From Caecitellus pseudoparvulus (taxonomy: Eukaryota; Protista; Bigyra: Bicosoecida): a stretch of 64,000 bases of DNA. This document shows positions 6,511-32,932 of this stretch, piece by piece. The translations under genes were made by a program, and so were the position numbers. Location of the stretch: NCBI GenBank assembly GCA_965644315.1, contig CBFFRQ010000019.1, forward strand, positions 372,001 through 436,000. The letters run 5' to 3'. How positions within the stretch are numbered: position 1 is the stretch's first letter; every line of letters begins with the position of its first letter. The notes beneath the pieces are model-generated. The model saw only the letters and a program-made list of their open reading frames with translations, searched no databases and was not told where the DNA came from.

Positions 6511-6604
6511 ATAATATAATTTAGAAAATATTTTTAAAAATAAACCCTTATATTTTTTTTTAAAAAATCACGCATTTTGTAAAAAAAAACTAAACTAGAT
6601 ATTT

Positions 6605-7741
6605 TTAATATTTAGGTTGAAATAAAAATTTCATAGATACATTAGATAAATTAGATAATTTAAGAGGCACAAGTTCCCCCGTTAATCTATATTTCCAGTA
6701 AATATTAACGTTAATATTTCTTATAGGTTGTTTAGAATTTGTAAGAGATACGAAACGATATTCAGCACCCGGGATATATGATATATAATCCTTATAGTCG
6801 TAGGCATCGTCTAGAGTTAAACTAATATCAGTAATGATAGGTTCAAAATTAGAAATTGAAGAAACGGCATTAGCATTGTTAGAATTACCAAATTTCACGG
6901 GCTGGCTTACACCTTCACTTATAATAGGTAATAATGAAGAAGTAAAAACAATAGAAGATATAGGGCTCCAATATGTGCCAAGGCTTACGGCTTCTTGTTC
7001 TATTTTAATATAATCTACGCTGTTTAATGTGATAGAGTTTAAACCCTGATAATTACGGGGGATAATTCTATATTGTTTAGTTTCGTCTAAATCGTTGTAT
7101 TCATGCGGATAATGTGATAATAAATTATATAAATTAGAATTAAAAAAGAACGAAAAACCGCCGTCATTATCTGCGGGATAATAAATATCAAATTTTTTAT
7201 TTGCGTTATTATATACTATAAAAGGGCTTATTAAATCTGTAAATGCTGGATAATCAACTTTTATTAATGCGTTTAATTGAGCTATTGAATATGTTATGGC
7301 TTCATTTACTAATTTTATAAAATGGTCGTATGTGTGGCAGTAATAATATTCTTGAGATGCGTTTTGTCCTTCTGTTTCAAAATTTGAAGGTGCTGATAAG
7401 CTTGAATCGTTGCTTTCCCATATTACGGGTTGCGTGTATTCGTATTCATTGCCGCCTATATGATTATATTTAACTGTTATTTTATATACGGTTTTATTTG
7501 GGTTTGTTTGTCCTTCTTCAATTACTGGTATAAATAAAGGTAAATCATTAATACCGTTCATAGTAAAACGAATAATAGACATTTTATATTTTGAGGCATC
7601 ATTAATTAAGGGTACGTCTCGTGTTTCGGAAAAACTGGCTATTGGGTCGTTAATCTTACCTTGGCTCGTGCTTCTTCCGTTGATAATATCAATATTATAA
7701 TAAATATTTTTATCTTCTTGATACATTGTAGAATTTAACAT
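6605..7741 (-). CDS. Virophage minor capsid (penton) protein A
   Basis: NIYYNIDIIN, F.ETR..P.I, Y.MSIIRF, LP.FIP, WSPISSIVFTSSLLPI, IITD, Y.P.AEYR motifs; adjacent to the MCP. Confidence 0.9.
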   Translation of the reverse strand: MLNSTMYQEDKNIYYNIDIINGRSTSQGKINDPIASFSETRDVPLINDASKYKMSIIRFTMNGINDLPLFIPVIEEGQTNPNKTVYKITVKYNHIGGNEYEYTQPVIWESNDSSLSAPSNFETEGQNASQEYYYCHTYDHFIKLVNEAITYSIAQLNALIKVDYPAFTDLISPFIVYNNANKKFDIYYPADNDGGFSFFFNSNLYNLLSHYPHEYNDLDETKQYRIIPRNYQGLNSITLNSVDYIKIEQEAVSLGTYWSPISSIVFTSSLLPIISEGVSQPVKFGNSNNANAVSSISNFEPIITDISLTLDDAYDYKDYISYIPGAEYRFVSLTNSKQPIRNINVNIYWKYRLTGELVPLKLSNLSNVSMKFLFQPKY

Positions 7742-7774
7742 TATTAATATATTAGATAAAATATTTTAATAAAG

Positions 7775-8359
7775 TTATTTTTTTAATAAATCATGAGTAA
7801 ATTTGGTGACTACGTCGTCAAAGTCTTTTAAATTCTTATCTTTTAATGATTTCATTAATTTTTTATAATCTTCTAAAGATAATTTATATAAAAGTAATCT
7901 TGCCGCTGTATGTCTACCACATGTTCCTATGCCTTCTCCTTTTTTTTGGAATTGGTATCTATTATATTCTAAACCATACCCCGCCTGGTCTATCATTCTT
8001 AATAATCGGGGTTCGTCTTGTCCTGTTTGTCTTTCTACTTCTTCGTCTGCGTTTAAATTTTCAGTTGCTGTGTCTGGTGGGTGTCCGTAAGGGTCGAAAT
8101 GCTCTATAATATTTCCTTTTTTAATTAATCCTACCCAATGCCCCACATTAGGGTCAGACGTTAGATATAATAAAATACAACGCCCCTTTTTATCGAAAAT
8201 TTCGTCAATATGTCTATAATTATATAATTTATCATAACTTATAATATTTGTATCATCATTAAATAAATATTCTAAATCACTATTTGATAAATAATAACGT
8301 TTAAGCTGTTCTCTTAATTCTTCGTTATGTTCTGGGTCAGATTTTTTAGATTTTTTCAT
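7775..8359 (-). CDS. Virophage maturation cysteine protease A (adenain/Ulp1-like)
   Basis: GHW...HFDPYG...FQ...TCGRH catalytic His/Asp/Gln/Cys pattern. Confidence 0.92.
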   Translation of the reverse strand: MKKSKKSDPEHNEELREQLKRYYLSNSDLEYLFNDDTNIISYDKLYNYRHIDEIFDKKGRCILLYLTSDPNVGHWVGLIKKGNIIEHFDPYGHPPDTATENLNADEEVERQTGQDEPRLLRMIDQAGYGLEYNRYQFQKKGEGIGTCGRHTAARLLLYKLSLEDYKKLMKSLKDKNLKDFDDVVTKFTHDLLKK

Positions 8360-8398
8360 TATAATATATTATATTATAAAAATATCATATATTATTTT

Positions 8399-9187
8399 TT
8401 AGTCTTCGTCTTGATGTAAAAGATAAGCATAATTTGAAGATAATATATAGTTGGGATAATTTGTAAAAACCGCACACCATCTCCCTAATTTACGTAGTTT
8501 TTTTATTTCGTCTTTATCACATCCTCCATAATTTCTTAACAAATACCCTAATTGATGAGGTGAAGAAGATTGAGGAAAAATAACAATATGAGTTGATTCA
8601 TTTAAAATTAATCGTGTTTTTTTGTAGTTTGTTAGGTTATGAGCAATATAAATCATAGATATTCCCTGATGACGCCCCATAATACATATATCATCAATGA
8701 TTTTTAATATTTTGTCTAAAACGTTTTTTTCTAAAGTTTCAAAATCATCAAAAATATATAGTCCCTCTGTGTCTTCGTTGTTAATATCAAAGTCTTCTAT
8801 AAAATCTTCAATATCTACACGGTGGATAAAATCTAATTCGTCTAATGTTTCGTCTTGTGTTAATTTAGATATTAGATAAATAGGCAGGTCGGGGTTTAAT
8901 CTATGATAATTATTAGATATAATTTTGGCTGTGTAGCTTTTACCTGAACCCGCAGCACCTGGCACATAAAAAATATCACGTTTTCCCTTCTTAGTAGCAG
9001 GGAGAATATTAAAAATTAAATCGTCAGGTAGTTTTATGCTTTTATGTCCGGTGTTTTTATCGGTTAAACATAAGAATTTATTAAAATCTTTATGGTTTTC
9101 ATCACCTTTAACAATGGCAACGGGTGTGTAATCCTTCTTTAATTTATGTTTTATATTTTTATAATCAAGTAATTCAAAACTAGGCAT
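8399..9187 (-). CDS. FtsK/HerA-family genome packaging ATPase A
   Basis: Walker A GAAGSGKS, Walker B YIFDD, arginine-finger motif MGRH, TRLILNE. Confidence 0.92.
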   Translation of the reverse strand: MPSFELLDYKNIKHKLKKDYTPVAIVKGDENHKDFNKFLCLTDKNTGHKSIKLPDDLIFNILPATKKGKRDIFYVPGAAGSGKSYTAKIISNNYHRLNPDLPIYLISKLTQDETLDELDFIHRVDIEDFIEDFDINNEDTEGLYIFDDFETLEKNVLDKILKIIDDICIMGRHQGISMIYIAHNLTNYKKTRLILNESTHIVIFPQSSSPHQLGYLLRNYGGCDKDEIKKLRKLGRWCAVFTNYPNYILSSNYAYLLHQDED

Positions 9188-13870: not shown

Positions 13871-15823
13871 TTAGATTATTTTATTTACATTTACTATATT
13901 GATTTTATCTTTTTCATATTCTATTTTTAATCCTCCTAATTCGTTATTCCTTAATTTATCTTTGCCTAATCCTTGAATTTCATTAATAATTATATTTTTA
14001 TCGGTTATAAATCCATCTGTGTGTATTCTATATATTTTATTTGTATCTTTTATATATTTTTCAATTATTGAAGATATTAAAACCCGCCCTTTAGCTGTAA
14101 GAAAACAACTCAAGCGGCTTAAATCTGTATTAAATGGATTATCTGGGCTGTAATTCACAATATAATTTTTATTATCATTAGAAGGATGAATAAAATTAAT
14201 ATTGTTTATACTTTGATTATATGTTTTTAATGATGTTATTTTAAAATTCTTAGAACATAACAAACCCCATAAACGATTTAATAACATTTTAGGGATTTTA
14301 TTTGTTTTATATTTTTGTTTTAATGTTATCATCTTTTTAACGTAATCTTTAAAAACCATTGAACCATTAACCCGGCTTTTAGAATCATAGAATAAAAAAT
14401 TATATCTTCCATCTTGGATTAATTCAATATTATAATTGAGTTCTTTTGCTCTGGTTAATTCGTAGCTAGTGTAAAAATTAGATTGTTTCACATTAAATAA
14501 GGCATCGTCAATTTTTCCTGTTATTTTTGCTCTATAAATTCCAAATCTATAAAATTTTGGAGTTTCTGTTAATTTTTCAAATTTACCTGTTTTAGTTGGC
14601 ATTAAAAAATGTTGATGTTGTAGAATATATGGATATTGACTGTTAATATCATAACATCTAACATTTTTATATTTTCCTTTCTTACAATGGATTAAACCAC
14701 CACTAAAACATTTATTTAAAAAATGGATTTCTAATGGATTTTCTAAAGGTTCAATATTTAATTTTTGAGAAATATAATAACATTCATTTTTAATAAAATC
14801 TGAGATTGATTTGAATTTTAATATATCAACATCTTTTTTAATTTCGTTAATATCATTCTTATATTTTTCATATTCTGATTTAATATCATTCTTTGTGTTG
14901 GATTGGTAAAAATGAAAATGTTTTTTATAGATGTCTTTATAAAAAGTTATCTTATCGGTCTTTTCTTCTGTGATTCCATCATAATAAATAATGAAATCTA
15001 AATTTTCCTGATATATGATAATTTTTAAATCTGATTTATGTTTTTTGATTCCTGATAATCCTTTTCTTTTATTATATTTATTTTTTAAATGTCCGTCTTT
15101 GTATTGTAAATTAACTGTTTGTGGGTTTGACTTGGTTGATAAAATAGGATTCTCAAAACCATAAACATTAATGTTAATATTTAGTTTATCTTCTATTTTT
15201 GAAATGTCCTTTAATGGCACTTTGTCTTTTCTATCTAAATTTAAAAAATTCTTTAAACGTCCCGCAGTTGTAAAAGGTTTCATCCTGTCTTCTCCTATTA
15301 CTCGTCTTATAGATAAATATAAACAATCGTTATATTCACTGTTTGCTCCTGCTTCTGTTTGTTCTGGTTCTATATGTGGTCTTGTTGTAATACATACACC
15401 ATAAACATATTTAATATTAGGTGCGTTATATTGATTAAAAAAATCTTTAATTTTGATTCTTTGTCCTGGATTCTTAAAACCATTTGAAATATTACGCCAT
15501 CCAATAGAAAATAAAACGCTTATATTATAATCTAAGTTTCTATATTGTGCCAATTTTGATAATACATTTAAATAATTTTGAGTTGTTTTTATTGTTGTCC
15601 CTTTTAATTGCTCTCTTACTGTTTGAGAATAATATTTTAAATCCTCAGGGTTATCGATTGTATCATCAAAATTTAAATAATCGCTTTCGTCATTATCAGA
15701 AACTCCAAATAAAGTAATTTTTAAATCTCCATCTTTATATTTTTTTGTTTTCTGGTCTAATGTCTTAAATGTTAAAGCTGCTTTTTGTTCGTTTCTTGTG
15801 AATGTTGGTTTCTCTTGAGCCAT
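13871..15823 (-). CDS. Family B DNA polymerase, short protein-primed type
   Basis: FSGG, motif A YDINSQYP, motif B KMLLNRLWG, motif C HTDGF. The N-terminal NDCLY...GH segment resembles the OTU-like domain of Polinton pPolBs. No clear exonuclease motifs. Confidence 0.85.
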   Translation of the reverse strand: MAQEKPTFTRNEQKAALTFKTLDQKTKKYKDGDLKITLFGVSDNDESDYLNFDDTIDNPEDLKYYSQTVREQLKGTTIKTTQNYLNVLSKLAQYRNLDYNISVLFSIGWRNISNGFKNPGQRIKIKDFFNQYNAPNIKYVYGVCITTRPHIEPEQTEAGANSEYNDCLYLSIRRVIGEDRMKPFTTAGRLKNFLNLDRKDKVPLKDISKIEDKLNININVYGFENPILSTKSNPQTVNLQYKDGHLKNKYNKRKGLSGIKKHKSDLKIIIYQENLDFIIYYDGITEEKTDKITFYKDIYKKHFHFYQSNTKNDIKSEYEKYKNDINEIKKDVDILKFKSISDFIKNECYYISQKLNIEPLENPLEIHFLNKCFSGGLIHCKKGKYKNVRCYDINSQYPYILQHQHFLMPTKTGKFEKLTETPKFYRFGIYRAKITGKIDDALFNVKQSNFYTSYELTRAKELNYNIELIQDGRYNFLFYDSKSRVNGSMVFKDYVKKMITLKQKYKTNKIPKMLLNRLWGLLCSKNFKITSLKTYNQSINNINFIHPSNDNKNYIVNYSPDNPFNTDLSRLSCFLTAKGRVLISSIIEKYIKDTNKIYRIHTDGFITDKNIIINEIQGLGKDKLRNNELGGLKIEYEKDKINIVNVNKII

Positions 15824-17024: not shown

Positions 17025-18749
17025 TTATATTGAAATTTTAAATAAATCTTTTTGTTCTGAATTATTAGATATTTTATCTGCTGTCATACTACTTAAATTT
17101 TTATTTAATTTCTGGTGTTTATCTGATAAATTTATTATCTCTTCTTCTTCTTCTTCTTCTTCGTCGCTGTCTTCTTCTTCGCTGTCATCCTCAATTTTAT
17201 CTTCTTCTTTTTTTATAAGATTTAGTTTTAATGCTCTTAATTCATCCTTTAATTTTTTTAATTCTTGGGCTTGTTCTATACATATTTTTTTATATTTTAA
17301 AGCTTGAGATTTATAATTATTATCGTTTGGTTGTTGTTCTTCTTCTTCCTCTTGAAAATCTATTTCTTCTTCTTCGTCTTCTTCTTCGTCGTCTTCATAT
17401 TCTGATTTAAAATTCCATTTATAATTTTCTGATATTTTCTTTAATTCATCATATGAAATTTTATAAACGCTACAACCGTCTAATTTTTTATTATATTTCT
17501 TTATTCCCCAGTGTTCTAGTCTATCATAAAAAAAAACTGATGTTTTACGTGATTTAGTGTTTATAGTTTCTTTATATACTTTTTCATAATAATTAGCATA
17601 TTTAAAAAATAAATCTCGACATTTTATTTTTTCTATTCCTTTATTTTTGAATAAATATTTTTCTCTTATGAATGATATATAAGGGTCAAAAGATTTTAAA
17701 TGAGCTTTTATTTTTGAATCCGTTATTGGCATTCTAAGTGGTTGAAAATCTGAAATATCAACACTATTAAAAAAATTAAATAATGCTTTTGAAAAATTTT
17801 CATTATGAACATAATTATTGTGAATATTGTCCCAGTATTCGTTATTACCTAATAAGCTTGAGTCAATATCTAAAATAAAATATCTTCTGCCTTGGTCGTC
17901 TTTGATTGCGTAATATTCATTTGATAGAGAAATAAAATTTGAAACATTCTTAATATTTTCTAATGGGTTTTTATTTTTCTCTTCATAATTTAAATATGGA
18001 TTCGTGATATAATCTCTTAGTCTTGCTGCTGCTGCTGCTTTTTGTCCTCTTGTTGTTCCTCCGGTGAGTTCTTCAAAATATACGCATATTTTAGCCATTA
18101 ACTCCATATTAAATTTTTCAATTAGTGGTTGAGATGATGAATTAATAACATTCTTAAGCCCCAGCATATCTTCAATAAATCTAATTAAGGTAGATTTCCC
18201 GCAGCCTTCGGGTCCCTTTAAAACTATCATTGATGTATTTTTATTACCTTGAATCATATTAGCAATCCATTTTATTAAATAATTATAATTCTCGACGTTT
18301 CCATTTGATAAGACACGCAAAAAATAATTTTTTAATAAATAATCAACTTTCTCTTTTAATTCTGTTGATATTTCCTCATATGGTTCAGGTTTAAATTTAA
18401 GAGGTGGTAATAAATTAAACTCGTTTTCTTTTAATTCTTCGTGATGAAATTTAACAACTGCTTTTTTAAATCCAATATATGAATTTTTGAACCAATATTT
18501 TAAAGGCTTAGGGAACACCTGTAATTTTTTATTAAAAATTTTATCAGATATAAATTTATCATTAACTATGTATTTTTCAGCATCTTCACATTTAAAAATA
18601 GTTTTAGATATGTAATCTTTACATTTTAATAATAAATCCTCATCTTTTAAATTCTTATTACGTGCTTTTTTAACTATGTCTTCTATTGCTTCTTCTTCAT
18701 ACATTTTTATAAGTTTATCAATTGTGAATTTTGGTTGTTGAATATCCAT
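17025..18749 (-). CDS. SF3 (D5/NrS-1-like) helicase with acidic C-terminal tracts; true start probably 18749
   Basis: Walker A GPEGCGKST, Walker B VYFEE, ISLSN motif C, GRRY arginine finger. The ORF-track start at 18788 lies inside the promoter element. Confidence 0.88.
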   Translation of the reverse strand: MDIQQPKFTIDKLIKMYEEEAIEDIVKKARNKNLKDEDLLLKCKDYISKTIFKCEDAEKYIVNDKFISDKIFNKKLQVFPKPLKYWFKNSYIGFKKAVVKFHHEELKENEFNLLPPLKFKPEPYEEISTELKEKVDYLLKNYFLRVLSNGNVENYNYLIKWIANMIQGNKNTSMIVLKGPEGCGKSTLIRFIEDMLGLKNVINSSSQPLIEKFNMELMAKICVYFEELTGGTTRGQKAAAAARLRDYITNPYLNYEEKNKNPLENIKNVSNFISLSNEYYAIKDDQGRRYFILDIDSSLLGNNEYWDNIHNNYVHNENFSKALFNFFNSVDISDFQPLRMPITDSKIKAHLKSFDPYISFIREKYLFKNKGIEKIKCRDLFFKYANYYEKVYKETINTKSRKTSVFFYDRLEHWGIKKYNKKLDGCSVYKISYDELKKISENYKWNFKSEYEDDEEEDEEEEIDFQEEEEEQQPNDNNYKSQALKYKKICIEQAQELKKLKDELRALKLNLIKKEEDKIEDDSEEEDSDEEEEEEEEIINLSDKHQKLNKNLSSMTADKISNNSEQKDLFKISI

Positions 18750-18760
18750 TATATAATATA

Positions 18761-18793
18761 CTAGATAAAATATTTTTTCTTTAAACATATTTT
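18761..18793 (-). promoter_or_regulatory. 33-bp conserved upstream element, copy 3 (helicase)
   Basis: Exact match to copies 1 and 2. Confidence 0.8.
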
Positions 18794-18799
18794 TTTATT

Positions 18800-19415
18800 T
18801 AGATATTTTTTATTTTTAAAATTTTCTTAGATATTTTATCCTAGATATATTTTTATGATTTTCATATATGTAAATTTTAAAATGTGAGAGAATGTTTTTT
18901 ATTATATATTCGCACACACTCCACACACTATGTAGGATTTAGGGTTAAGGGATTAAGGGATAAGGGTTAGATTGGATTTAGGGTTATGTGATATATGAAT
19001 AAGTGATATTTTATGATGTTTTTTATTTTGGCTTTTCGTCTCCTTTGATTGTTTCTGGAATAGGTAGATTGGGTGGATGCTTGATTGCTTCAATTTTATT
19101 TTGATTGATTGTTGATGAAGTGTTAAGAAGAGTTTCAAAAAATATATATATATATATATTTATTATATTTTTTATATTATTTCTATTTATTGTAGTGATA
19201 ACCCTTAAGATAACCCTTATAAAATAGTAGTAAATAGTAGTATAAAAATGGTATCAAGGGTTTATAAGGGATTGTTTTTGTAGGGGTAGGGCTTAATAAG
19301 TGTTATAGATATAGTATAAATATATCTAAGAATGGTATTTATAGATTTTATCTAAGAAAACTATTTATAAATATATCTGTTTTTAGTCGCAAACTGCGGC
19401 AGCAGTTGAGACACA
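18800..19415. repeat. Non-coding terminal region of element A (candidate right TIR/origin) with telomere-like GGG repeats
   Basis: No credible ORF; TTTAGGG/TTAAGGG/ATAAGGG runs and TTGATTGATTG motifs that recur in the terminal region of element B. The partner TIR is not in the window. Confidence 0.5.
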
Positions 19416-19819
19416 CCGCACATACATACATTATGTATGTATTGTCCCCCATTCTTTTCTCTATATTTTCTAGCGTATTCCCTAACTGATTCTTTGTTTT
19501 TCATTCTGTAAGTTCTACAATAGTTTATATGCATTTGTTTTTGTTCCTTTCGTGTTCTTGTTGGTATAATTTTATTTACACATTCGGTATTTTCAATATA
19601 GTATCGCTCCCTTGCGTGTAATTCCTCTTTACTTTCACACGGAAAATTTTCAATTAAAATAATATCAAAATCGTCATAATCAACCAATTGTCTTGATGAG
19701 CAATTTTTTTTCGTTTTGTGTTGTGATTTTCTTTTGGATAGTCGCTGAGTAGTTGAACCAATATAAGTTAAACCACCACCAACAAGTTTATAAATTTTAC
19801 CATCTTTGTAATTTACCAT
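19361..19819 (-). pseudogene. GIY-YIG endonuclease, apparently truncated at its C-terminal zinc ribbon
   Basis: GKIYKL...YIGST...RKSQH...IENFPCESKEEL..RERYYIE...VNK. It ends CMCG and then runs into unrelated sequence instead of the usual His-containing ribbon half. Likely start is MVNYKDG at 19819. Confidence 0.75.
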
Positions 19820-20449
19820 TTTATTAATTATATCTATTTTCTTCTTTTTAAGTCTTTTTTTCATTTTCATTTTATGACGTCATCATCCGCTCACGACCTC
19901 CAGCCCACCGCGTGGGGCATCCTATGAGTTTTTTCTACGGTCTATATATACAAGCCCCCCACACACGCGAGAGCCGCGGAGGGCGGCACGACGGACAGCC
20001 GAAAGCGTCTCGCCCTGAGAGGCGTATTTCACCGTCGTTGGCGAGTCTGACGAAAAGTTAAGATTCCGAGAGTTTAGGGTTCTCTCGCACGTGTTTCGGA
20101 CACAAAGAGCCACCGAGAAAAAAATTCGGTGACTCGTTCGGAGCATCCTCAAAACGGAGGAGCAACGCATCACAAAGAATCGCTGATGCAATATGCTGTG
20201 ACGTCCCCTAAGATTCGCCCTAAACAAAAAACTGGTGGGTTAGCCCACGGTTTCAGCCCAATAAAAACTTACCGAAAACGTAAGGGCTGTTTTTTGTTTG
20301 AGGTTTTTCAAATTCCGCACGAGTCACAAAAAATAAAATGAAGCCCACATCAAGCCCTACAATTTCCGCATATTTTCAAATTCCGCATTGACTCGGAACA
20401 CATAAAAAAATCAAATTTGAACTTTTTTTACATACTTCAAAAAATATTT

Positions 20450-20537: not shown

Positions 20538-20813
20538 CTAATTGAAGAACCTTTTATTATATGCATCTAAAGCATCCTTTAAATTGTCTTTTTCACCCCA
20601 TAACAAGAAAAAACTTAGGTATCCTGCTCGTTTAGGGTCTCGTGTTCCAAGGTCGCTAACGTGTCGTTTATGATAGTTTAGCCTTTTCTTTTTGTCTTTG
20701 TGGTCTATATATGTGTTTCCTCCTGCTTGTCCGAAATGTGTTTTAGTTCCATCATCAAATATAGCCGTAAATCTTTTATTCTTCCGTGTGCTGGGTATAA
20801 TATCTATAATCAT
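20538..20813 (-). CDS. DUF5754-like small basic protein B
   Basis: Clear ortholog of 2407-2703. Confidence 0.75.
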   Translation of the reverse strand: MIIDIIPSTRKNKRFTAIFDDGTKTHFGQAGGNTYIDHKDKKKRLNYHKRHVSDLGTRDPKRAGYLSFFLLWGEKDNLKDALDAYNKRFFN

Positions 20814-20830
20814 ATATTATATATTACATT

Positions 20831-22735
20831 TTAATTGCTGATTCTATCCATTTTATAAGTTATTTCAACGTCAATATTTTCATTTATATCACTTTTAACC
20901 GCCACATTCCACGTAGGAAAGTTGCCAGATGCTGAAACTGTCATAACCTTACTTAATGTAATTTGTCCGTAGTTTTTTGATGCCTCGGCCTCCATAAATA
21001 TACGCCCTATAGTTGTATCAATACCTGATGCAGAAGCAGGGGTAGTTAATCTACCAAATACAACGGCTGTTGTTTGTCCCGGGCCATCTATTACTAAATT
21101 AATAGTAGCACTTAAAATATATGTTCCTGTTTGGTATGATTCAACAGGGATAACAGTATCCATTACGAACGTTTTCCAAGTATTAGCGGTGAAAACATCA
21201 TTAAGAGCTATTTTATAACTTTGAAAATTTGCTGTTCTTGCTAATAATTGCCCGTAGTTTGTTGCGTGATATTGTGTTGTAGCATCTTTTAACCATTCAA
21301 TATTTCTATTGCCCATATCTAATTTAACATTTGTTTTAAGTTCTGAGTTAGTAACGGCGAAACGCTGAACCGCCCCCCCTGAATTATTACAATAAAAGGC
21401 GTGTTCGGAACTGCTCCCTCCGCTCATATTAACGTATCTTGTTTCGTTGCTTAATTGTTCTATCCAATATGAAACCAAAGAACCATCAGGGCGAATTAAC
21501 GTTAATTTATCGGCTTGAATCTCTCCTACATCTTCAATATTATTACCATTCAAATTTATATTATTTGTAAAGTTGCTCCCACCTGCGACACTATCAACAT
21601 AGGCTTTATTTGCTCCGTCAGTTCCTATTGTAGGTGTTGCCACATTTTCAATTTTATTATTATTCATATTTAATAGAGCTTCTATACTTGTGATTCCTGA
21701 AAATGTCTTATTTCCTGCTACGGTTTGATTTCCTGTAAGTTGAACGCAGGTATTAATTAAATCATCGACATAAGCTTTATTGGTTAAACAATCATCATTA
21801 TTGGCGGTGTCAGTTTGAAAAATACGACAACTAGGGGACAAATAAATAGCCCCTGTATTATAAAAATATGTTAGTTGTTTGTTTGGGTCGTTTCCGATTC
21901 TAAATTGTGCGGTTGTTGGGTTCTTAGATGATAAAGTTAAAATTTTATTATTATTATCTTGATTTAATAAAACCTCAGTTCCACCAAATAATAAATTTCC
22001 GTTAATATTTAATTCATCGTCGCCGTTATATGTTAAATCCATAGTTGTAGAGCCATTATTAAAAGTTAATGAAGGGTTAGAGGCTTTATTTAATGTTACC
22101 GTTTCATATGTTGGATTAGTTGGGGGTATGGGCGCAGGATTTCCAGCGTTACTATTACCCAATAACACATATAATTTATTATCACTCGTTTTTAATAATC
22201 CTCCTTGTGGTTCTTGTTCTTGCGTGGTTGCTACTTTTAAAGAAGCGTGTTTAAAACTTACGGTAATATTTGAAGTTCCGTTATTTTGCGCTCCAATATA
22301 TACATATCGTGCATTTGCTGGATAATCTAGACCGTCACCGTTAGCTTGAATATCGATTTTATTATCTTCATTTACAAGATTAAAAGGGAAACCAGAAGAA
22401 ATATAAGTATTATCCTTATCATAATAATCAACACGAATATTTAAATTTAATTCTTCCTCTTCTACTGTTTCCAATTCAACATAATAATTTAAATACATTC
22501 TATAATATGTCCCTTTGTTTGCTGGTAATAATAAAGCGTCTTGTATTGGTTGCGTTAAAAATAAGGTTTTATAAGTTGCATTGTTTGTTAATGTGTCAGT
22601 TGTTCCAAATGTTATGCCTGATGTGCTGATATAATTAAAAGCCTCTTGAAGTCGTGCTATGCTGTTATTTTGTGTTGGTTCATTATAAACCCCAGCATTC
22701 GCCATTTCGTAACGGTTATTAATTGCGTTAAACAT
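20831..22735 (-). CDS. Putative virion fibre/adhesin B
   Basis: Ortholog of 2722-4620 with the same neck-like motifs. Confidence 0.7.
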   Translation of the reverse strand: MFNAINNRYEMANAGVYNEPTQNNSIARLQEAFNYISTSGITFGTTDTLTNNATYKTLFLTQPIQDALLLPANKGTYYRMYLNYYVELETVEEEELNLNIRVDYYDKDNTYISSGFPFNLVNEDNKIDIQANGDGLDYPANARYVYIGAQNNGTSNITVSFKHASLKVATTQEQEPQGGLLKTSDNKLYVLLGNSNAGNPAPIPPTNPTYETVTLNKASNPSLTFNNGSTTMDLTYNGDDELNINGNLLFGGTEVLLNQDNNNKILTLSSKNPTTAQFRIGNDPNKQLTYFYNTGAIYLSPSCRIFQTDTANNDDCLTNKAYVDDLINTCVQLTGNQTVAGNKTFSGITSIEALLNMNNNKIENVATPTIGTDGANKAYVDSVAGGSNFTNNINLNGNNIEDVGEIQADKLTLIRPDGSLVSYWIEQLSNETRYVNMSGGSSSEHAFYCNNSGGAVQRFAVTNSELKTNVKLDMGNRNIEWLKDATTQYHATNYGQLLARTANFQSYKIALNDVFTANTWKTFVMDTVIPVESYQTGTYILSATINLVIDGPGQTTAVVFGRLTTPASASGIDTTIGRIFMEAEASKNYGQITLSKVMTVSASGNFPTWNVAVKSDINENIDVEITYKMDRISN

Positions 22736-22811
22736 ATCTATATAATTAACATATATTTTTTATTATTCAGTTAATACAAAATAATAAAATACTTTTTTAT
22801 AATTTAATTTT

Positions 22812-24584
22812 TTAAAGTAAGTTTTTTAAATAGTTTGAATTTTTACGCCGTCCTCCTGTGGTTATTCCTCCTCCTGCTGCTCCTCCTGTATTCTTACCAT
22901 ATCCTAAAACTTCAACAACATCGGCTGCCCTTTTGGCTCGGTCATCTCCTGAGGCTCTAGCAAGGCTTTTTCCTAATTTCGCCATTTCTTTCGTTACTGG
23001 AGATGAAGCAATTTTTTTTAATGTGCTGTTAAGTTTGCTCCAAAAATTAGACCCCCCAACATAACGTTTTAAGCTCATTGTGTCGCCTTGGACTGGTGCT
23101 TCTATAACTTCGCTTTCTGTTAATGGTGCGGTAGTAATTGCACTCTGTCCGCCTTTAGTTACAAAGAAGCCACTATTTACAGCAACTAAATATAAAATGG
23201 GGCTTGTTACTGCTTCCGCCTGTTGGTTTTTTACTTCGACATCAAATTGAAGCGTGTAATTTCCGCCCACACCTGACGCAGCGCCATTGTTTAGAGCGAA
23301 ATCGACCCCTGGGCGAACGACAAGGAAACCGCCAACTAGGGGAACTTCTACAGCTGTTCCATTACCGCTCCACGCTGTGCCGTCGTATGTGTTATAATCC
23401 ATATCTAAGCCGTTACGTTGTGACATATGGAATAATTGCTCTTTAGTCATACTGGACATAATACCGCTTACATTATCAAACTGCATACTAATTGATTGAA
23501 TAGGGAGATGATAATCACCGACTTTATTATCTGTAATGTTTGGTTTTACATAAATCAGCATTAAATCAGGAATTTGCGAAAGTGTCACAGTTTGACTTTT
23601 TAATTTTGCGGTTGCTCCTGCTCCAATTGTTACGCCTGTATTATTGCTCACAAAACGGGGGAATTCCATATATGGGACGATGTTCTGTTCAGGTAAAGGA
23701 ATAGATAAACTAGGAGTTCTAAAAACGCAATTAATACGAGGGTCAATAAATGGGTTACTTCCTGTAAATCTAACGGTTGAAATTTCTAAATCATCAGGAT
23801 TATAACAACGTAGAAGGCGTGAAGGGTCGCCGACATTTGCTTGAATACGAACATTATTAATGCCAAAAAGTCCGCAGGAGTCTTCCTCTGATTCATTCCA
23901 AATAAAGGGACTAACCATTAAATTTTCGGTGACGTCTAATTCAAAATATAAAACTTGCGTTCCGTTAGCGCCTTTAGCTGCGTCCCATACTGGTTGAGTG
24001 CCTAGGGGGTTACCATTTGCATCAACCCATTTAAACCCTGTAAATGCTCCGTTGGGTTGGTTATCATTTGAGAGGGCTGAACCGTAGCCATTTAATACGC
24101 TTGCTGGTTGGGTTTTACCATCATCATATTTTAAAAATTTATCAAGCATTACAGGGGTTGTTTTGCTTTTATGGTTATGTTTTGTTGCGGTGATTCTTTC
24201 CATTTCATATAAAATATCCCTTACGTTGCTTGTGGTGGTTGCATTATTAATAGTTGCGCTAAGTGTGGTAAATAGTGAATGTAAAGGATACGCACAAGAT
24301 GCTAAATGAACCCCATAATAAATCCCTATTACAGCTCCTGCGGCTCGTGCTACTGCTGTCGTTACCGTAAATTCGCCACGAATTTTGGTAGAAATTGGGA
24401 CTGGTCTATCCATAAATACGTTTTGATTTGGTGCGTTAATATTAAAAGCAAGAGCGGAAGAAGAGCTGTTATTAGCCTGAAATGAGGTATTTGAAACGCT
24501 TAAAGCTCCTTCATTTACTGCATATCGTGGGGTTGGTTGCACGATGCGAGCATCCATAATTTTAACTTTTTCTACTTGAGACAT
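22812..24584 (-). CDS. Virophage major capsid protein B
   Basis: Ortholog of MCP A (43 of the first 60 residues identical by hand count); RYVGG/SNFW maturation site. Confidence 0.93.
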   Translation of the reverse strand: MSQVEKVKIMDARIVQPTPRYAVNEGALSVSNTSFQANNSSSSALAFNINAPNQNVFMDRPVPISTKIRGEFTVTTAVARAAGAVIGIYYGVHLASCAYPLHSLFTTLSATINNATTTSNVRDILYEMERITATKHNHKSKTTPVMLDKFLKYDDGKTQPASVLNGYGSALSNDNQPNGAFTGFKWVDANGNPLGTQPVWDAAKGANGTQVLYFELDVTENLMVSPFIWNESEEDSCGLFGINNVRIQANVGDPSRLLRCYNPDDLEISTVRFTGSNPFIDPRINCVFRTPSLSIPLPEQNIVPYMEFPRFVSNNTGVTIGAGATAKLKSQTVTLSQIPDLMLIYVKPNITDNKVGDYHLPIQSISMQFDNVSGIMSSMTKEQLFHMSQRNGLDMDYNTYDGTAWSGNGTAVEVPLVGGFLVVRPGVDFALNNGAASGVGGNYTLQFDVEVKNQQAEAVTSPILYLVAVNSGFFVTKGGQSAITTAPLTESEVIEAPVQGDTMSLKRYVGGSNFWSKLNSTLKKIASSPVTKEMAKLGKSLARASGDDRAKRAADVVEVLGYGKNTGGAAGGGITTGGRRKNSNYLKNLL

Positions 24585-24635
24585 ATATATATAACTTTTA
24601 GAAAAAAAAAATATATATTATATATTAAAAAAAAT

Positions 24636-25754
24636 TTACTTTTTAGAAAATAATAATTTCATAGTTACATTTCCTAAATTACTTAATTTTATAGGTATTA
24701 GTTCCCCTGTTAATCTAGCTTTCCAAAATACATTTATATTTATGCTTCTTATAGTTTCTGAATTATTGGATAAGCTTATCCATCTTGGCGGACCTTGTGG
24801 AATGTAGCTTATAAATTGTTTATATTCGTATGCATCGTCAAGGGTTAGGGCTATATCTGTTATAATACTTTCATAATTACTGCTCGAATCTGTGGGGGTT
24901 GTTGTGTTACTGCTTCCAAAAGTTATAGGCTGGGCGACTCCTTCAGGAATAATTGGTAAAATTGAACTTGTAAAAACTAAAGAAGACACAGGCGACCAAT
25001 AAGAACCAAGGCTGATAGCCTCTTGCTCAACCTTTACATAATCTGTATTATCGCCCCCTATATCTAGCGTTACACTGTTTAACCCTGCGTTATTTCTTGG
25101 TAAAATTCTATATCTTTGGGCGTTGTTGCTGTCGTCTAAATCGTGAGGATAAAAGCCTATTAGGTTATATAAATTACTATTAAAATATATCTTTAATTTC
25201 AAGTCATCCAAAATATAAAAATCAAATTTCTTTTTTGAAGGTTCATAATTTAAAAATGATTTTTTTAAATCTGTAAATGTTGGGTCATCAATTTTAACCT
25301 GTGCGTTTATATCTGTTATAGCACTTGATAAAGCATTATTAATTAAGCTTACGAAATGTTCGTATGAATTACAATAATAATATTCATACTCCATTTTCTG
25401 CGTTGTGAATGGGTCATTTGGTGGGGTTTTGCTTGCGTCTTCAGGTTGCCATATTACGGCTTGTGTGCTTTCGTAAAGTGTTAAATTAGTGTGTAAATAA
25501 GCAATTTTGACAGAATAAACGGTTTTATTTGGGTTTGTTTGATTTGGTTCAATATGAGGAATAAATAAAGGTATATCTTGAACGCCATTCATAGTGAAAC
25601 GCATAACCGCCATTTTATATTTTGATATATCTCTTATTATCGGTTGGTCTCTTGTTTCGTTAAATGTTGCTCTAGGGTCATTTACTATCCCTTGGCTTGT
25701 TGTGCGACCGTTGATAATATCAATATTATAATAAATATTCTCTTCTTGATTCAT
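24636..25754 (-). CDS. Virophage penton protein B
   Basis: Ortholog of 6605-7741. Confidence 0.9.
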   Translation of the reverse strand: MNQEENIYYNIDIINGRTTSQGIVNDPRATFNETRDQPIIRDISKYKMAVMRFTMNGVQDIPLFIPHIEPNQTNPNKTVYSVKIAYLHTNLTLYESTQAVIWQPEDASKTPPNDPFTTQKMEYEYYYCNSYEHFVSLINNALSSAITDINAQVKIDDPTFTDLKKSFLNYEPSKKKFDFYILDDLKLKIYFNSNLYNLIGFYPHDLDDSNNAQRYRILPRNNAGLNSVTLDIGGDNTDYVKVEQEAISLGSYWSPVSSLVFTSSILPIIPEGVAQPITFGSSNTTTPTDSSSNYESIITDIALTLDDAYEYKQFISYIPQGPPRWISLSNNSETIRSININVFWKARLTGELIPIKLSNLGNVTMKLLFSKK

Positions 25755-25772
25755 ATATATAATAGTAATATT

Positions 25773-26357
25773 TTAATTTTTAATTTTAGTTATTAAATCG
25801 TGCGTTAATTTCGTGACTATATCGTCATAATCTTTCAAATATTTATTTTTTAATTCATTCAATAATTTAGAATATTTCTTTAATGGTAATTTATGAAATA
25901 TTAGCCGTGAGGCGGTGTGCCTTCCACAAGTTCCTATATCATCGCCTAATTTTTGGAATTTTTTATTATTATATTCTAAATTATATCCTGCTTCTTGAAT
26001 CATCTTTAATAATTTTGGTTCGGTTTGTCCTACTTTTTCGGCTACGTCTGGAGGTGTTCCTAAATTTTGGATTGATGAATCAGGGGGGAAGCCGTAAGGG
26101 TCAAAATATTCAATTGTATTATTTCGTTTTATTATGCATACCCAATGCCCCACTGTTTCGCTTTGTGTAAGATATAATAAAATACAACGCCCTAATTTAT
26201 CGAGTATTTCGTCAATATGTCTAAAATTATAAAGTTGATTATATGGGTATATGTTAGTATCAGGATTTAAAATATAATCTAAATCGTCATTACTTAAATA
26301 TTGAGCCTTTAAATATTCTCTAAATTCTTTATTTTTTTCTACATCTTCACCGTTCAT
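25773..26357 (-). CDS. Virophage maturation cysteine protease B
   Basis: GHW...YFDPYG...FQ...TCGRH. Confidence 0.92.
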   Translation of the reverse strand: MNGEDVEKNKEFREYLKAQYLSNDDLDYILNPDTNIYPYNQLYNFRHIDEILDKLGRCILLYLTQSETVGHWVCIIKRNNTIEYFDPYGFPPDSSIQNLGTPPDVAEKVGQTEPKLLKMIQEAGYNLEYNNKKFQKLGDDIGTCGRHTASRLIFHKLPLKKYSKLLNELKNKYLKDYDDIVTKLTHDLITKIKN

Positions 26358-26404
26358 TTTATATATATAATTATAAATATAAAATTAAATTTCAATTAAA
26401 ATTA

Positions 26405-27184
26405 TTAATCGGTATGGAGTAAATATGCACTGTTTGAAGATAATATAAAATTTGGATAAATACAAAAAACACAAGCCCACCTTCCCAATTTCTTTAATTG
26501 TTTTACTTGTTCTTTATCACAATTGCCATAATTTTGAAGTAAATATCCCAGTTGATGAGAGCTTGAGTTTTGAGGGAAAATTACAATATGTGTTGATTCA
26601 TTCAAAATTAAACGTGTTTTTTTATAGTTTGTTAAGTTGTGCGCTATATAGCAAAGGCTCATATTTTTATGACGCCCCATAATGCATATATCATCAATAA
26701 TTTTTAATACCTCGTTTAAAATTGGCTTTTCTAAAGTTTCAAAATCATCAAAAATATAAAAGCCTTCGTTATCTTCGTTGTTAATATCAAATGCTTGAAT
26801 AAAATCCTCAATATCGACCCTTGTTATAAAATCTAATTCATCCAGTGTTTCATCTTTCATAAGTTTTGAAATTAAATAAATTGGTAGTTCAGGATTTAAT
26901 CTATGATAATTATTTATTATTATTTTTGCTTGGTATGATTTACCAGAGCCAGAAGCACCAGCAATATAAAAAATATCACGTTTTCCTTTCTTTGTGTTGG
27001 GTAAAATATTATATATTAAATCCGCTGGTAAATCAATACGTTTTTTTCCGTGGTGTTTATCACTGAGACATAATAATTTATTAAAATTCTTGTTATTTTC
27101 ATCACCTTTAACTATTGCTACAGGATTAAAAGAACCCTTTTTAATTTTTGGGCTGTTATAGTCTAGCAATTCAAAGCCAACCAT
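26405..27184 (-). CDS. Packaging ATPase B
   Basis: GASGSGKS, YIFDD, MGRH. Confidence 0.92.
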   Translation of the reverse strand: MVGFELLDYNSPKIKKGSFNPVAIVKGDENNKNFNKLLCLSDKHHGKKRIDLPADLIYNILPNTKKGKRDIFYIAGASGSGKSYQAKIIINNYHRLNPELPIYLISKLMKDETLDELDFITRVDIEDFIQAFDINNEDNEGFYIFDDFETLEKPILNEVLKIIDDICIMGRHKNMSLCYIAHNLTNYKKTRLILNESTHIVIFPQNSSSHQLGYLLQNYGNCDKEQVKQLKKLGRWACVFCIYPNFILSSNSAYLLHTD

Positions 27185-27224
27185 TATATATTTATAGTTT
27201 ATATATTTTTTATAAATTTTTAAA

Positions 27225-27316
27225 AAAAAGATTTACAAAAAGTTAAAAAATGTTATTGTTTTAGTGTAGGCTTAGCGGTGGGTTAAATAGTTTTTCAACT
27301 TTTTGTAAAACTTTTT
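27225..27316 (-). terminator. Long inverted repeat orthologous to 9203-9296
   Basis: AAAAAGATTTACAAAAAGTTAAAAAA pairs with TTTTTCAACTTTTTGTAAAACTTTTT. Confidence 0.65.
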
Positions 27317-29207
27317 ATTTAAATATTCCAAGAGCTTTACCCATTGAATCTCCGACATCTTGCATCCAATTTATCAAACCTCCAGAACCAGCACCAACAA
27401 TAAATTTTTGTGTGAATTGTTCAGGGCTTAAATAGCGTCCTTGTCCAACTAGTGGGCGGTCGTCGTCGCTTTCTTCTCCTGTTCCATCTCGGAGCATACG
27501 TTGGACATCGTCAATAAGTTCCTGTGGGGGTGGTGTGTCATCATCCGAGATAGAATCAAAATAACCGAGTGACTCTTGTAATGCTGTTATTTCATCAATT
27601 AATTTTCTTCGTTGGACTCTTTCCGCTATTGATATATCTTCTCCTTTTTCTTTCATATGTTTGCTGAGTTTCTTTTGAAGTCCTTTTAATTTCTTTTCTT
27701 TTTCTTCATCTGTTAAATATTCCAATGGGTTTAATTTCGCATCTCGTATATCAATAGCTCTTTTTAATTCTCTAACCTGTTGTTGGAGTCCTTCACGCTC
27801 CTTTTTTTTACCCTTTCCTCTTGCTTTCTTTCCGTATCTTGTAATATGATTTAATAATCTTTCTCTTGCATCCTTCAATTGTTGCTCTAGTTGAACTATT
27901 TCAAACTCTACCCTATCTCTTTGAACGTCTTCAAGTTCGCCGACTTGTTCCGCCTCTGTGTCTGTTAGTTCTTGTGTTTCTCCGTCAATATCTTGTAAGA
28001 TTCTTTGCATATCATCAACCAACCTTAAGCTTGCTTGTTTTTCTGCATCTTTATTGTCTTCTAAAAATTTTAAGCCTTCTCTTAATCGTTTAATTCGTTG
28101 TTTTTGCTCAAATTGTTTTTCTTTATCTTGTTGTTTCTTTGCTCTTTGTTCTTCCTCTCTAATTGCTTTCTTTAAATCTGCTTTAAATTTTCTTAAATAT
28201 TCTTGAACGTCTCTTCTGTCCTTTAAGTTTGCTATATTATGCTGGGTTTCTTTTGTTATTCTTCCTGTAGTTCTCCCTTGGGTGCTTCGTCTCGTTGTTG
28301 CTTTCACATAATTTTCAATTTTTTTATATGCACTAACTGGCAGTAAATCTTTTAAATCATCTAATCCATTTTTAACCTCTTCATTAATTCGCTTCATATC
28401 TTCATTAAATAAATCATTCTTTTTGGCTTCTATAATTTGGTTAAAATCGCCGTCAAATTTTTGCTTTCTGTCTGATGGGTTCATATTATAGCTATTTATT
28501 AGGGATTGTAAAACTAAATATATTTTAAAAATAACTTCATAATAATTAACACGCTCCAAATAGTCTAAATATGTGGATGCTACTTTTTTATATACTACTG
28601 GTTCTCCTGTCCTTGATTGTTTTATATCCTTTCCGAATAAATCACGACCTATAAATAATTTCTCCATATTTCCTAAATAATTATCTAAATGTGTTTCTGT
28701 TATTTGGGCGTATCTTTCTAATGAACTTATTGATAATCCTAAACCATAAGCTTTTAAATTTCCTAACACCTGTTTTGCTTCTTTGGCGTTATTTGTTACT
28801 TCCTTTAAAGAAAAATCAACGTTGGAAAGCTCACTAAAAAATAATTCTAATGATGTTTTTACAGTTTCAGGCGTTTCTATATCATCACGTTTTGGAGGTG
28901 GAAGCCCTAAATTTAGCGTTTTTAGTTGTTCTGCTCGTCGTTTTAATTGCTCTCTTACTTTCGTATTATCACTAAGAACACCACCTCGCATATTTCCTAA
29001 TACCATATTATAATTTAATTGATTACTGTTTCCGCTGAAGCTATCAAGCCTATTAAATGAGCCCTGAGGTTGTGGTTTAGGTAATTTATATAAACCTTTT
29101 AAAAATCGTTCTTCATTTTTAGCGGTTTGTTTTAATCTATTTAATACGTTTCTTTTTGAATAATTCGCATATTTCAAATGAAATAAATCTCTTTCTTTAT
29201 TACTCAT
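27315..29207 (-). CDS. Conserved virophage protein B (coiled-coil C-terminal half)
   Basis: N-terminal half orthologous to 9295-11148; contains MRGG/VL, VGQG and VGAG motifs. Confidence 0.75.
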   Translation of the reverse strand: MSNKERDLFHLKYANYSKRNVLNRLKQTAKNEERFLKGLYKLPKPQPQGSFNRLDSFSGNSNQLNYNMVLGNMRGGVLSDNTKVREQLKRRAEQLKTLNLGLPPPKRDDIETPETVKTSLELFFSELSNVDFSLKEVTNNAKEAKQVLGNLKAYGLGLSISSLERYAQITETHLDNYLGNMEKLFIGRDLFGKDIKQSRTGEPVVYKKVASTYLDYLERVNYYEVIFKIYLVLQSLINSYNMNPSDRKQKFDGDFNQIIEAKKNDLFNEDMKRINEEVKNGLDDLKDLLPVSAYKKIENYVKATTRRSTQGRTTGRITKETQHNIANLKDRRDVQEYLRKFKADLKKAIREEEQRAKKQQDKEKQFEQKQRIKRLREGLKFLEDNKDAEKQASLRLVDDMQRILQDIDGETQELTDTEAEQVGELEDVQRDRVEFEIVQLEQQLKDARERLLNHITRYGKKARGKGKKKEREGLQQQVRELKRAIDIRDAKLNPLEYLTDEEKEKKLKGLQKKLSKHMKEKGEDISIAERVQRRKLIDEITALQESLGYFDSISDDDTPPPQELIDDVQRMLRDGTGEESDDDRPLVGQGRYLSPEQFTQKFIVGAGSGGLINWMQDVGDSMGKALGIFK

Positions 29208-29270
29208 ATATATTAAATAAGGATATTTTATTTTTATTGTTATATTAATTAATTAACGATAAAATAAAAT

Positions 29271-29912
29271 TTAATCTAATAAATGATTTTGTTTTATGTA
29301 TTTTGAAGCTTCCCCAAGGCTCATATTATGCTCTTTCATCAGTTGTGAAACTAATTTATTCCGTTTTTTTTGTTTTTCTGATAATTTTCTGGGTTTTTTA
29401 GCTTTTTTCATTTTGCCATATCCGACTGCCTCTAAACCTGCTTTAATATGTTGTCCATATGGAAGAGCTGGAGAAATGGCTTTTATTACCTTTCCTGCGG
29501 GCTTCCACACCATATCGAACCCTTTCTTAAAGTCTTTCCAAAAGCTACCACCTTTAATATGTCCGAGGTGCTTCTGTAATTCTTCCGCATATTTTTCGCC
29601 TAATTTCTGACCCCCTAAAAATTCACCCTGCTCACGGTCTGGAATTTTAGCCTTTTTAGCTCGTTTTCCTCCTACGGTTCTTTTTGTGCTTCCTAATAGA
29701 CCCTCGAGGCGTTTATCTGTATATGGTTCGGTGTTTAATTCGCCATAACTTCGTCCTCCGTAAGTGCGGTTATGTTGTGATGGTAAGTGAATAAGTTGCG
29801 GAAAATATACTGTATGACCTTTACCCCCTTCAACTGTTGAATTTTCAAGGGTTCGTGATTGTTCCATATTTAATAATAAATCCCTTAGTTCTTGGTTTTC
29901 TACTTGTGACAT
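29271..29912 (-). CDS. Small basic core protein B with amphipathic helix
   Basis: Ortholog of 11220-11831 (GGSFWKDFKKGFDMVWKPAGKVIK). Confidence 0.75.
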   Translation of the reverse strand: MSQVENQELRDLLLNMEQSRTLENSTVEGGKGHTVYFPQLIHLPSQHNRTYGGRSYGELNTEPYTDKRLEGLLGSTKRTVGGKRAKKAKIPDREQGEFLGGQKLGEKYAEELQKHLGHIKGGSFWKDFKKGFDMVWKPAGKVIKAISPALPYGQHIKAGLEAVGYGKMKKAKKPRKLSEKQKKRNKLVSQLMKEHNMSLGEASKYIKQNHLLD

Positions 29913-29941
29913 ATAATATATATAACTATATTTTTTTTTCC

Positions 29942-31923
29942 TTAGCGTAAAATAAATTCTTTAGTGTGAATATTTAAAATATTTTTTAAGATATCTTTTA
30001 ATTTATTTAGGTTTTGCTCCATTGTTTGAGGTTGTTTTAATATTGTTCTTATAGTTTGTAAAATATTATTTTCCTTTTTTAAATAGGAATTTACACTGTA
30101 TATATTAGATAACCTATAAATAAAACTTTCTATCGTATTTTTTATTTTATCGTTATTTGTTCTTGTTTCTAAATTTATTAACGTTAAAATAGCTACAATA
30201 TCATTTATTACACTGTATAATATGCCAACTTCACCATTAAAAAAATTTGTTAATTCTTGTAGTCGTTTTAATGTTTTTTCTTTTATTTTGTCGCTTTTAT
30301 TATATGTGTAAATATGTTTTAGTTTGGAGTATTCACGTTTTAAAGCCTTATAATATTCACCTTTCATTATATACGTTTTTATTTGGTCGTTTAGTGTGTC
30401 TTTAATATTTACTCTATAATTATTTATTCTTTTATTTTGCTTATCCCTTAATTCGTATATTATGGAAAAATCCATATATTTATTTCTTGTGAATCCTAAA
30501 GCGTCTATTTTTATTAATCCATCCGTTTTAAATGCTTGTTTTAGTGTGATTGTCTCGCCGTTTAATAGTGTTTTTTTTCCGTTTAATACTTCATCAGCAG
30601 TCCAACGCATAATATGAAATCTTAAAGCGTCTTTTATTTCTGCTAATTCTGCAGGTGTTGGATTTTCCTTAATTAATTTATATAATTTGGCTTTTTCTGT
30701 TTCGCTTAAAAATGATAACTTATTTTTTATATCTTCCTTTATTTGGCTTGGTTTGTATCCTATTAATTTATTATTTTTTTTATAAATATTGGGTAAAATT
30801 TCAAATGGTCTATATTCACCGATTTTTATATCATCATAAATTAAATATATATTTTGTGCTTTTATTAATTCTTTTATTTTATTTTGAAATTCTTTAACAA
30901 ATTTATTTAAATTATCAACTTTAACGACTTCATATAAATCAAAATCTGAGGGGTAAATAGTCGCTTTTATTGCAGACGAGCCCATAACCTCAACATTATT
31001 TATATTAAATGAAAGAGCTTTTATTATTTCTATTGTATCGATTCCGTAATTTTGAGGCTTTTTTTTTGTTAATACTGACCCAGCACCCGTTATTTTATTC
31101 CACCAAGCCCCAAGGCGTGTGGCTACCTTTGACACTGGCGATAAATAAGAAGCGTTTTTTTTAAATTATCGTAAATCTCGGATATATCCTGATATATAAA
31201 TTTTGTTGTTCTGTCACTGCTTAAATTATTAGCTTCTAAAATTGATAATATGAAATTTTGGCAATTATTACTAAATGCATCATAATCAAAATATTTTTTA
31301 TCGCCCATAAATTCCCTTGTTTTTTTTAACATTTGATTTAAATTTAAGCCTCCTTGATATTTTTCAACTGGTGTGCTTTCGCTGTGTTTATTTTGTTTTA
31401 CATTAAAAGACACGTTTATTTCTGCGTTTTTCTCAACCACTACATAACGCCCATTAATAGAACAAATTAAAGATAAATGAAAAAAATTATCAAATCCGTA
31501 ATTATGCATAAGTTCCTTAAAATAACCAAAAGAAAGCGTATTTAATATATTAATTAAAGTTTTTTGAACTGGTGTGCGAACTATCATAATATTAGTTATT
31601 GGTTTATCGCCTACTTCTTTTAATGTGCGTTTTGTTTCGTTCGTGTAATCTGTGCGGTAATTAAAAGGCTTTGTTATGTTATCTTCAATCCTATCTATTG
31701 GTTTAAATTTATCTTTTACTTTATTATAACCTTTCTTTAAAAATGAAAATGTTGAACTTGCACCTTTACGGAAAAAATCACCGATTCCTGAGCCGTGGAA
31801 GCTACTTAATATAATTTGTTTTAATTCTGCTTTTTTTATTTGTTTTGGTGGATATTCTCCATAAAGCTCTTTATATAATCCTTTTAATTCCGCTTTTGTT
31901 AAATTATACGCTTGAGCTTTCAT
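29942..31923 (-). CDS. HeH/peptidase/nucleotidyltransferase polyprotein B, split by a 1-nt frameshift at an A8 run (31155-31162)
   Basis: ORFs 31123-31923 and 29942-31135 together align end to end with 11831-13834; adding one A restores DNLKKNASYLSPVSKVATRLGAWW. Confidence 0.8.
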
Positions 31924-31977
31924 AATGTATATATATAATAGGTTGATAATTTATTTAAATAAAATATTTATTAATAC

Positions 31978-32181: not shown

Positions 32182-32189
32182 ATAAATAA

Positions 32190-32840: not shown

Positions 32841-32932
32841 CCTTCTTCTTGTTGTTTGCACTCGTTGCCGCCGCTTGTTCGTGGCAGTTGCAAGCTGTTC
32901 TGGCGGCAGGGCGCCCGCAGGAGGGCCCATTC

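Follow-up and report, generated by a model that had tools for sequence, protein, structure and literature searches.

The locus raises the question of how two virophage genomes, here called A and B, come to lie end to end in the DNA of one protist. Virophages are small viruses parasitic on giant viruses. The window is the whole 64,000-nucleotide stretch of Caecitellus pseudoparvulus DNA that was analysed. Its GC content per kilobase is 22-40% over positions 1 to ~32850 and 55-72% over the remainder, the latter belonging to a GC-rich eukaryotic host (~65% GC) with long unbroken genes. One host protease matched clusters labelled 'mostly eukaryote'. On the host side, a DDE transposase ORF (PF13359, 53572-55479) lies within a lower-GC stretch at 51-56 kb. 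Two virophage capsid modules occupy the AT-rich part in the same gene order and on the same strand, offset by ~18.1 kb, with 68-74% nucleotide and 52-78% amino-acid identity (53% for the major capsid proteins, MCPs); a pair of proteins of 617 and 630 aa gave no blastp match and aligned in part as DNA. The families PF21915, PF22031 and PF21507 scored above cut-off in both A and B, identifying a virophage MCP and penton in each. No curated Pfam model for a packaging ATPase or maturation protease passed in A or B; B's ATPase and protease genes match 25 and 54 of 80 virophage loci, A's copies are 76% and 61% identical to B's, and by this similarity both elements encode the two enzymes. Exact look-ups of nine window proteins returned none (0 of 9). 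Overall these results support A (1-19450) and B (19451 to ~32857) being separate, related virophages that abut. A ends inside the GIY-YIG gene of B, and we consider it likely that the rve integrase of A inserted A into an integrated B and that the remainder of B with its replication genes lies beyond the left end of A.

Virophage A (27% GC) has its left end upstream of the window and enters it with the C-terminal part of an rve integrase with a chromodomain (3..320, plus strand, PF00385), which is 85% identical over 93% to the 349-aa protein P0241 (PF00665 plus chromo). On the minus strand follow the MCP (4687-6510) and penton (6605-7741), both assigned by Pfam, and the protease (7775-8359) and packaging ATPase (8399-9187), both assigned by similarity to B's copies and through B to virophage loci; the three capsid and penton families fall in this 4687..9187 module. 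Further along the same strand are a protein-primed polymerase (pPolB, 13871..15823; PHROG 11768, E 4e-9), with PF03175 in 10 of 40 aligned relatives and a profile match to the DNA polymerase of PDB 1xhx at E 4.5e-6, and a D5/SF3-type primase-helicase (17025..18788; PF19263, TIGR01613). A has the rve integrase and pPolB by which EMALEs and Mavirus are recognised, and neither was found in B's visible part. The A polymerase and integrase tail matched none of the 80 virophage loci, which are partial, and the A capsid used alone as query matched no viral locus. Two smaller genes were also noted. A protein with a DPPY motif, which we take to be DNA methyltransferase-like and which has no family match, lies two genes from a PD-(D/E)xK nuclease of family PF24579 (1573-2397 and 352-813), and a 79-aa protein (16744-16983) has a C-x2-C...H-x5-H finger that by eye resembles the one ending many GIY-YIG homologues.

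To locate the end of A, we compared public contigs at the site from five of the 12 listed runs: X1, X3, X5, X7 and X11 (not X2, X4, X6, X8-X10 or X12). X1 and X3 sample the same organism, and either is possibly the source of the window itself; X5 comes from a marine metagenome and X11 from another organism, and the X7 contigs do not cover the junction. Contig depth is not copy number, and the display shows 13 of 15 loose ends and omits 83 pieces; contigs sharing just 30 letters seem to have been left unplaced, so alternative flanks of the A end are not displayed. The X1 contig covering 19369-19413 has a depth of 760; after it comes one of depth 296 (19384-19432), which crosses 19415|19416, the boundary given in the preliminary description. 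Two unlisted X1 contigs were back-calculated from the depth table, 19384-19424 (~500) and 19395-19432 (~417), with a residual of at most 0.2. Since the contigs at 296 and ~500 both cross 19415|19416, 796 units pass and none leaves there, as compared with 760 before the branch at 19414. None of the 13 loose ends shown lies at 19415. Instead, 300 units reach 19449-19450 and 51.5 go on into B, such that 83% of the depth leaves at 19449-19451. Depth after 19450 is 51.5 in X1, 39.5 in X3 (a drop from 445 across 19450), 3.95 in X5 and 0 in X11; for the high-depth X5 and X11 contigs the fall is seen after 19432 (variant letters are not placed beyond). The X11 contig, at depth 137, is a variant ending in TGTCCCCC, with the same five C and no B sequence attached. 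Contig depth and contig ends thus place the A|B junction at 19450..19451: a nesting junction exists, as was claimed, and its site is 35 bp from the one proposed. The A end is multi-copy, with several end variants at ~15 times the junction depth, which together with the integrase and pPolB speaks for a mobile A, and it is oriented towards B and linked to A's helicase side (contig joint 18786-18875). Two further contig joints, 20765-17623 and 17646-20841, rest on 24 letters and are likely spurious. One X3 contig joins the A terminal region to GC-rich sequence at 19317, either a truncated copy or a further insertion.

The gene interrupted at this junction is read from the minus strand. The ORF at 19361-19870 encodes a GIY-YIG protein (PF01541, E 3e-7) that ends ...HNVCMCGVSQLL...YK* without a His pair. 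From a likely start at 19816, 122 codons of B are kept (19451..19816), with the catalytic domain whole and the helical tail cut; the frame goes on for 29 codons into A, to a stop at 19361, and the 'GGQYIHNVCMCG' at the end of the protein is A's end read backwards. The tail after the catalytic C-x-N is 41 residues long, compared with a homologue median of 93, and is this short in 4 of 117 homologues (those scored among the best 120). Further evidence for an interrupted gene comes from X5, in the form of a 294-nt contig (record 20, depth 3.95) that differs from 19450-19679 at 2 of 230 positions. Its sequence left of position 19450 consists of 14 differing letters, 19451-19480 a second time, and 20 letters resembling the spacer. 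The period of this allele is 45 nt, in frame, repeating an EYARKYREKN unit instead of A, and it parts from the window sequence at the very base indicated by the depths. Record 20 is B's GIY-YIG gene running on without A, an empty site, on one low-depth contig made weak by its 30-letter short side. Both the short tail and this near-identical gene bear out the earlier statement that A's end cuts the GIY-YIG gene, and the uninterrupted B allele that had been anticipated elsewhere is found in this one marine metagenome contig. Within X1 and X3 an identical uninterrupted allele was not seen, the junction contigs not breaking at 19451; the GIY-YIG copies there are diverged, at ~87-89% (records 5, 6, 12 and 13).

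The right terminal non-coding region of A, likely a terminal inverted repeat, spans 18790..19450 and is multi-copy; the window contains no partner repeat. Its depth is ~2.2 times that of the helicase interior, which fits two ends per element with one end visible, depth not being copy number. The terminus is CCCCC-3' (19446..19450, plus strand), as indicated by X1 contigs ending at 19449 and 19450 and by the five C of the X11 contig. The empty X5 allele also has a C at 19450, so A ends at 19449 or 19450, and the last C may belong to the target. The AACTGC/GCAGTT hairpin described earlier is present at 19392..19407 (plus strand), 43 bp inside A's end; with a 6-bp stem it is unremarkable, stems of at least 6 occurring in 20% of shuffles. 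A 10-bp perfect palindrome at 19422..19442 (plus strand), 8 bp inside the end, was matched in 0.12% of 5000 shuffles, and 19371-19450 folds at z -4.0 as DNA. Other copies alter two right-arm letters of this palindrome (X1 and X11 both have loose ends at 19432), and 19425, the position expected for a compensating change, is where the back-calculated contigs of X1 branch. At most, this hints at covariation. Telomere-like TTAGGG/TAAGGG repeats lie at 18930-19000, inside the terminal region. An exact search with A-end motifs found none in viral contigs, and the one match in metagenome contigs (L006) is a chance match inside a bacterial gene.

In the favoured explanation, the genome of A would be linear and bounded by terminal inverted repeats that open with 5'-GGGGGAC, and is presumably copied by its own protein-primed polymerase. 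Short terminal runs suit protein priming. The rve integrase would have acted on a resident, already integrated B, probably with a short target duplication; the left end of A would then be an inverted copy beginning GGGGGACAAT, after a short duplication ATTCT(T) and the GIY-YIG tail repeats, and the left part of B, including its replication genes, would lie past it. The duplication CCGCA(C) expected earlier is unsupported. Target duplications of EMALEs are mostly 3-5 bp with no sequence preference, according to the available part of PMC8547959. We suggest that the site was not picked for its nuclease gene, and that in a genome of 65% GC, the AT-rich DNA of a resident virophage would simply offer a usable target at low cost. 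Together B and A (over 33 kb) are predicted to be too long to package, so B would be stuck unless A leaves.

What the window holds of B is its capsid module only. Beyond the GIY-YIG gene lies a GC-rich non-coding island (19880..20400) with several hairpins and folding z of -2.9 (plus) and -1.5 (minus); it has no Rfam match at E 1, an Rfam search over 18700-20600 returned nothing, and a variant without 19991-20097, part of the island, is present in X1. The minus strand of 20538..31923 encodes DUF5754, a fibre-like protein, the MCP (22812-24584), penton, protease, ATPase, proteins of 630 and 213 aa and a frameshifted homologue of A's 667-aa gene, in the order seen in A. The frameshift, at ~31120-31150, splits this homologue into 266 + 347 aa and reflects a mutation or an assembly slip; the other B genes are open. 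The right non-coding region (31924..32857) runs to the GC change point, with host DNA from near 32857, an approximate end. We found no recognisable terminus there, and neither A's end nor the GC island matched the region better than shuffled sequence did, except for one A/T-run alignment (score 43; highest of 60 shuffles, 41). None of eight queries covering A's integrase tail, polymerase, helicase and accessory genes matched in 19451-32900 by tblastn, and Pfam likewise gave nothing for replication or integration, in agreement with the earlier remark that B has no such genes in the window.

This gene content also suits a different history for a real junction, in which the left part of B is gone or was never present, through deletion or recombination, and B is a truncated or replication-less passenger. 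The lack of replication and integration genes and of a clear terminus in the window, together with the frameshifted gene, would fit, and truncated, fragmented endogenous virophages are reported in the accessible text of PMC8547959 and of the Halocafeteria preprint (bioRxiv 10.64898/2026.07.28.741278). However, the other B genes are open, and a recent event is suggested by the 99% identity between the GIY-YIG part and the empty allele. In such elements, genes for replication often lie near one genome end, here the unseen one. We regard a passenger B as unlikely.

A and B also differ in their promoters. TCTA precedes the start by 14-21 bases in 12 of 16 A genes compared with 1 of 10 B genes (Fisher p 0.004; the helicase and GIY-YIG genes were counted from chosen internal starts, and of B's frameshifted gene the second piece was excluded), and it is 3.3 times denser in A overall. 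In the part of PMC8547959 available, the late promoter of mavirus/CroV is TCTA, which characterises a single EMALE type. A and B thus likely answer to different helpers, being tuned to different giant viruses, and the TCTA box is the one hint that A depends on a giant virus. One could go further and propose that A-type virophages prefer resident AT-rich virophages with a different helper (B being without TCTA boxes) and immobilise these rivals, a competition by insertion between antiviral proviruses of one host; we rate this as a rather improbable extension. The box difference also argues against A and B forming a single composite element that has two capsid modules and contains the 18.8-19.45 kb region internally. 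The like gene order and strand, the ~18.1 kb offset and the 68-74% nucleotide identity would be compatible with such an element, but 83% of the depth leaves at 19449-19451, X11 has the A end with no B attached, and X5 has B's gene without the A end. A composite is very unlikely, and the view of A and B as separate elements is upheld.

A join made by misassembly between repeated elements must also be weighed. Multi-copy virophages are known to disturb assemblies, as stated in the available text of PMC8547959, and the junction contigs extend into A by 30 letters in X1 and 29 in X3, one or two short of the bridging bar of 31. Yet these contigs, starting at 19421 (X1, depth 51.5) and 19422 (X3, depth 39.5), cross the join without a differing letter and at the depth of the B side in two samples, and there is little chance that the join is an error.

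Is the choice of a nuclease gene meaningful? The GIY-YIG gene that was hit makes up ~3% of B's visible length, and homing-type nucleases have been discussed as weapons between related viruses in such literature as was partly available, which would favour a targeted attack, in which A-type elements disarm resident virophages by aiming at their nuclease genes. The preliminary description spoke of a nuclease knocked out and of inter-virophage conflict. Every invariant column of the catalytic domain is retained, however: Y9, Y18, G20, R29, H33, E70 and N81 (domain positions 7-85) all fall within the 122 residues kept. The predicted product has its catalytic domain and a tail that is shortened and replaced, and the knock-out is unsupported. 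Neither can one insertion show conflict. Furthermore, of 192 depth units with this type of end, ~140 lead into flanks that do not resemble the GIY-YIG gene, and no sequence-specific integration was found for Cafeteria virophages in the part of PMC8547959 at hand. No title or abstract opening in the literature searched describes a virophage insertion aimed at a rival's nuclease, in a search with subscription papers mostly outside it and supplements unopened. Targeted attack is highly improbable.

Finally, the preliminary description had A end in CA-3' at 19415 and split a zinc ribbon after CMCG. The plus strand at 19408-19419 does read GAGACACA|CCGC, as described, and a His-less CMCG is present in HNVCMCG. 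Among the best 120 of 1078 homologues, 49 have CxCG, followed by H..H in 48 of the 49; CMCG sits at the zinc-ribbon position of these homologues, and inferring a cut gene from the motif was reasonable. The other 71 homologues, including the four closest, have no CxCG. The family-like part stops at ...REKN (codon 19453-19451) rather than at HNVCMCG, and CMCG is A's own sequence rather than half of a ribbon missing its partner. Its presence inside A's end is likely a coincidence. An in-frame CxCG arises in 0.3% of 20,000 shuffles of A's 90 terminal bases, so that coincidence is the unlikely reading on this count, which counts against our preferred explanation. However, CMCG falls in an ATGT repeat, and the frame is shifted in other copies, which have an additional T after 19430. 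Given the branch at 19414, copies probably differ in the C of the proposed CA, and they continue to the C run. Vertebrate Maverick ends are of AG..CT types, not TG..CA, in the available part of PMC8097293, so CA ends would not be the rule for the rve integrase class; a literature search turned up no paper with the end bases of mavirus. With all depth crossing 19415|19416, variants alike up to the C run and the empty allele departing at 19450, an end at 19415 can be set aside as almost certainly wrong.

Insertion of A into B would be one more instance of a reported kind of nesting, and it gives no sign of a conflict directed at nucleases. The 2026 Halocafeteria preprint (bioRxiv 10.64898/2026.07.28.741278) already describes nesting of one virophage in another; its available text reports nine virophages inside other viral elements of Halocafeteria seosinensis, one harbouring another virophage. 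That host has 47% GC, compared with ~65% here, and its palindromes are 52 nt in subtype 5 and occur mostly with non-pPolB elements, whereas the palindrome here has 10-bp arms in a pPolB element. The available sections of the preprint leave the genes hit by virophage-in-virophage insertions unnamed, and the word 'nested' occurs 0 times in the part of the Tetraselmis preprint (10.1101/2025.10.09.676808) available. The present case is resolved to the base, with the empty allele seen in the sea. If the flanks of A-type elements prove enriched in other virophages, a host's protective stock of provirophages would erode itself, which bears on what limits provirophage number.

The EMALEs and mavirus of Cafeteria burkhardae resemble A and B in being AT-rich virophages in a GC-rich host, interrupted by later insertions, with repeats of 0.2-2.3 kb and a TCTA promoter box in one type and not others; in the same partial text (PMC8547959) the intruders reported are Ngaro retrotransposons, not virophages, and interruption by retrotransposons extends to cryptophyte elements (PMC12220804, likewise in part). 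The capsids here match Sputnik V20 (PDB 3j26) at E 7e-55, as compared with E 1e-10 for PDB 6g45, which we take to be the mavirus capsid. On its genes, A probably works like an EMALE, with integrase and pPolB, and is not one, its capsid being not closest to that of mavirus. The three capsid and penton families of Sputnik-type virophages are common to A and B, and 75 IMG/VR loci show 31-51% capsid identity. Sputnik itself has a tyrosine recombinase (PMC12220804, available part), whereas in the lineage of A, a Sputnik-type capsid occurs together with an rve/pPolB module and a G/C-run terminus. Like A, Polintons/Mavericks have pPolB, an rve integrase and terminal repeats with short repeated end motifs; in the accessible text of PMC8097293 these motifs are of (AG)3, (AGT)2 or (AC)3A types, in contrast to A, which has a G/C run and a virophage capsid.
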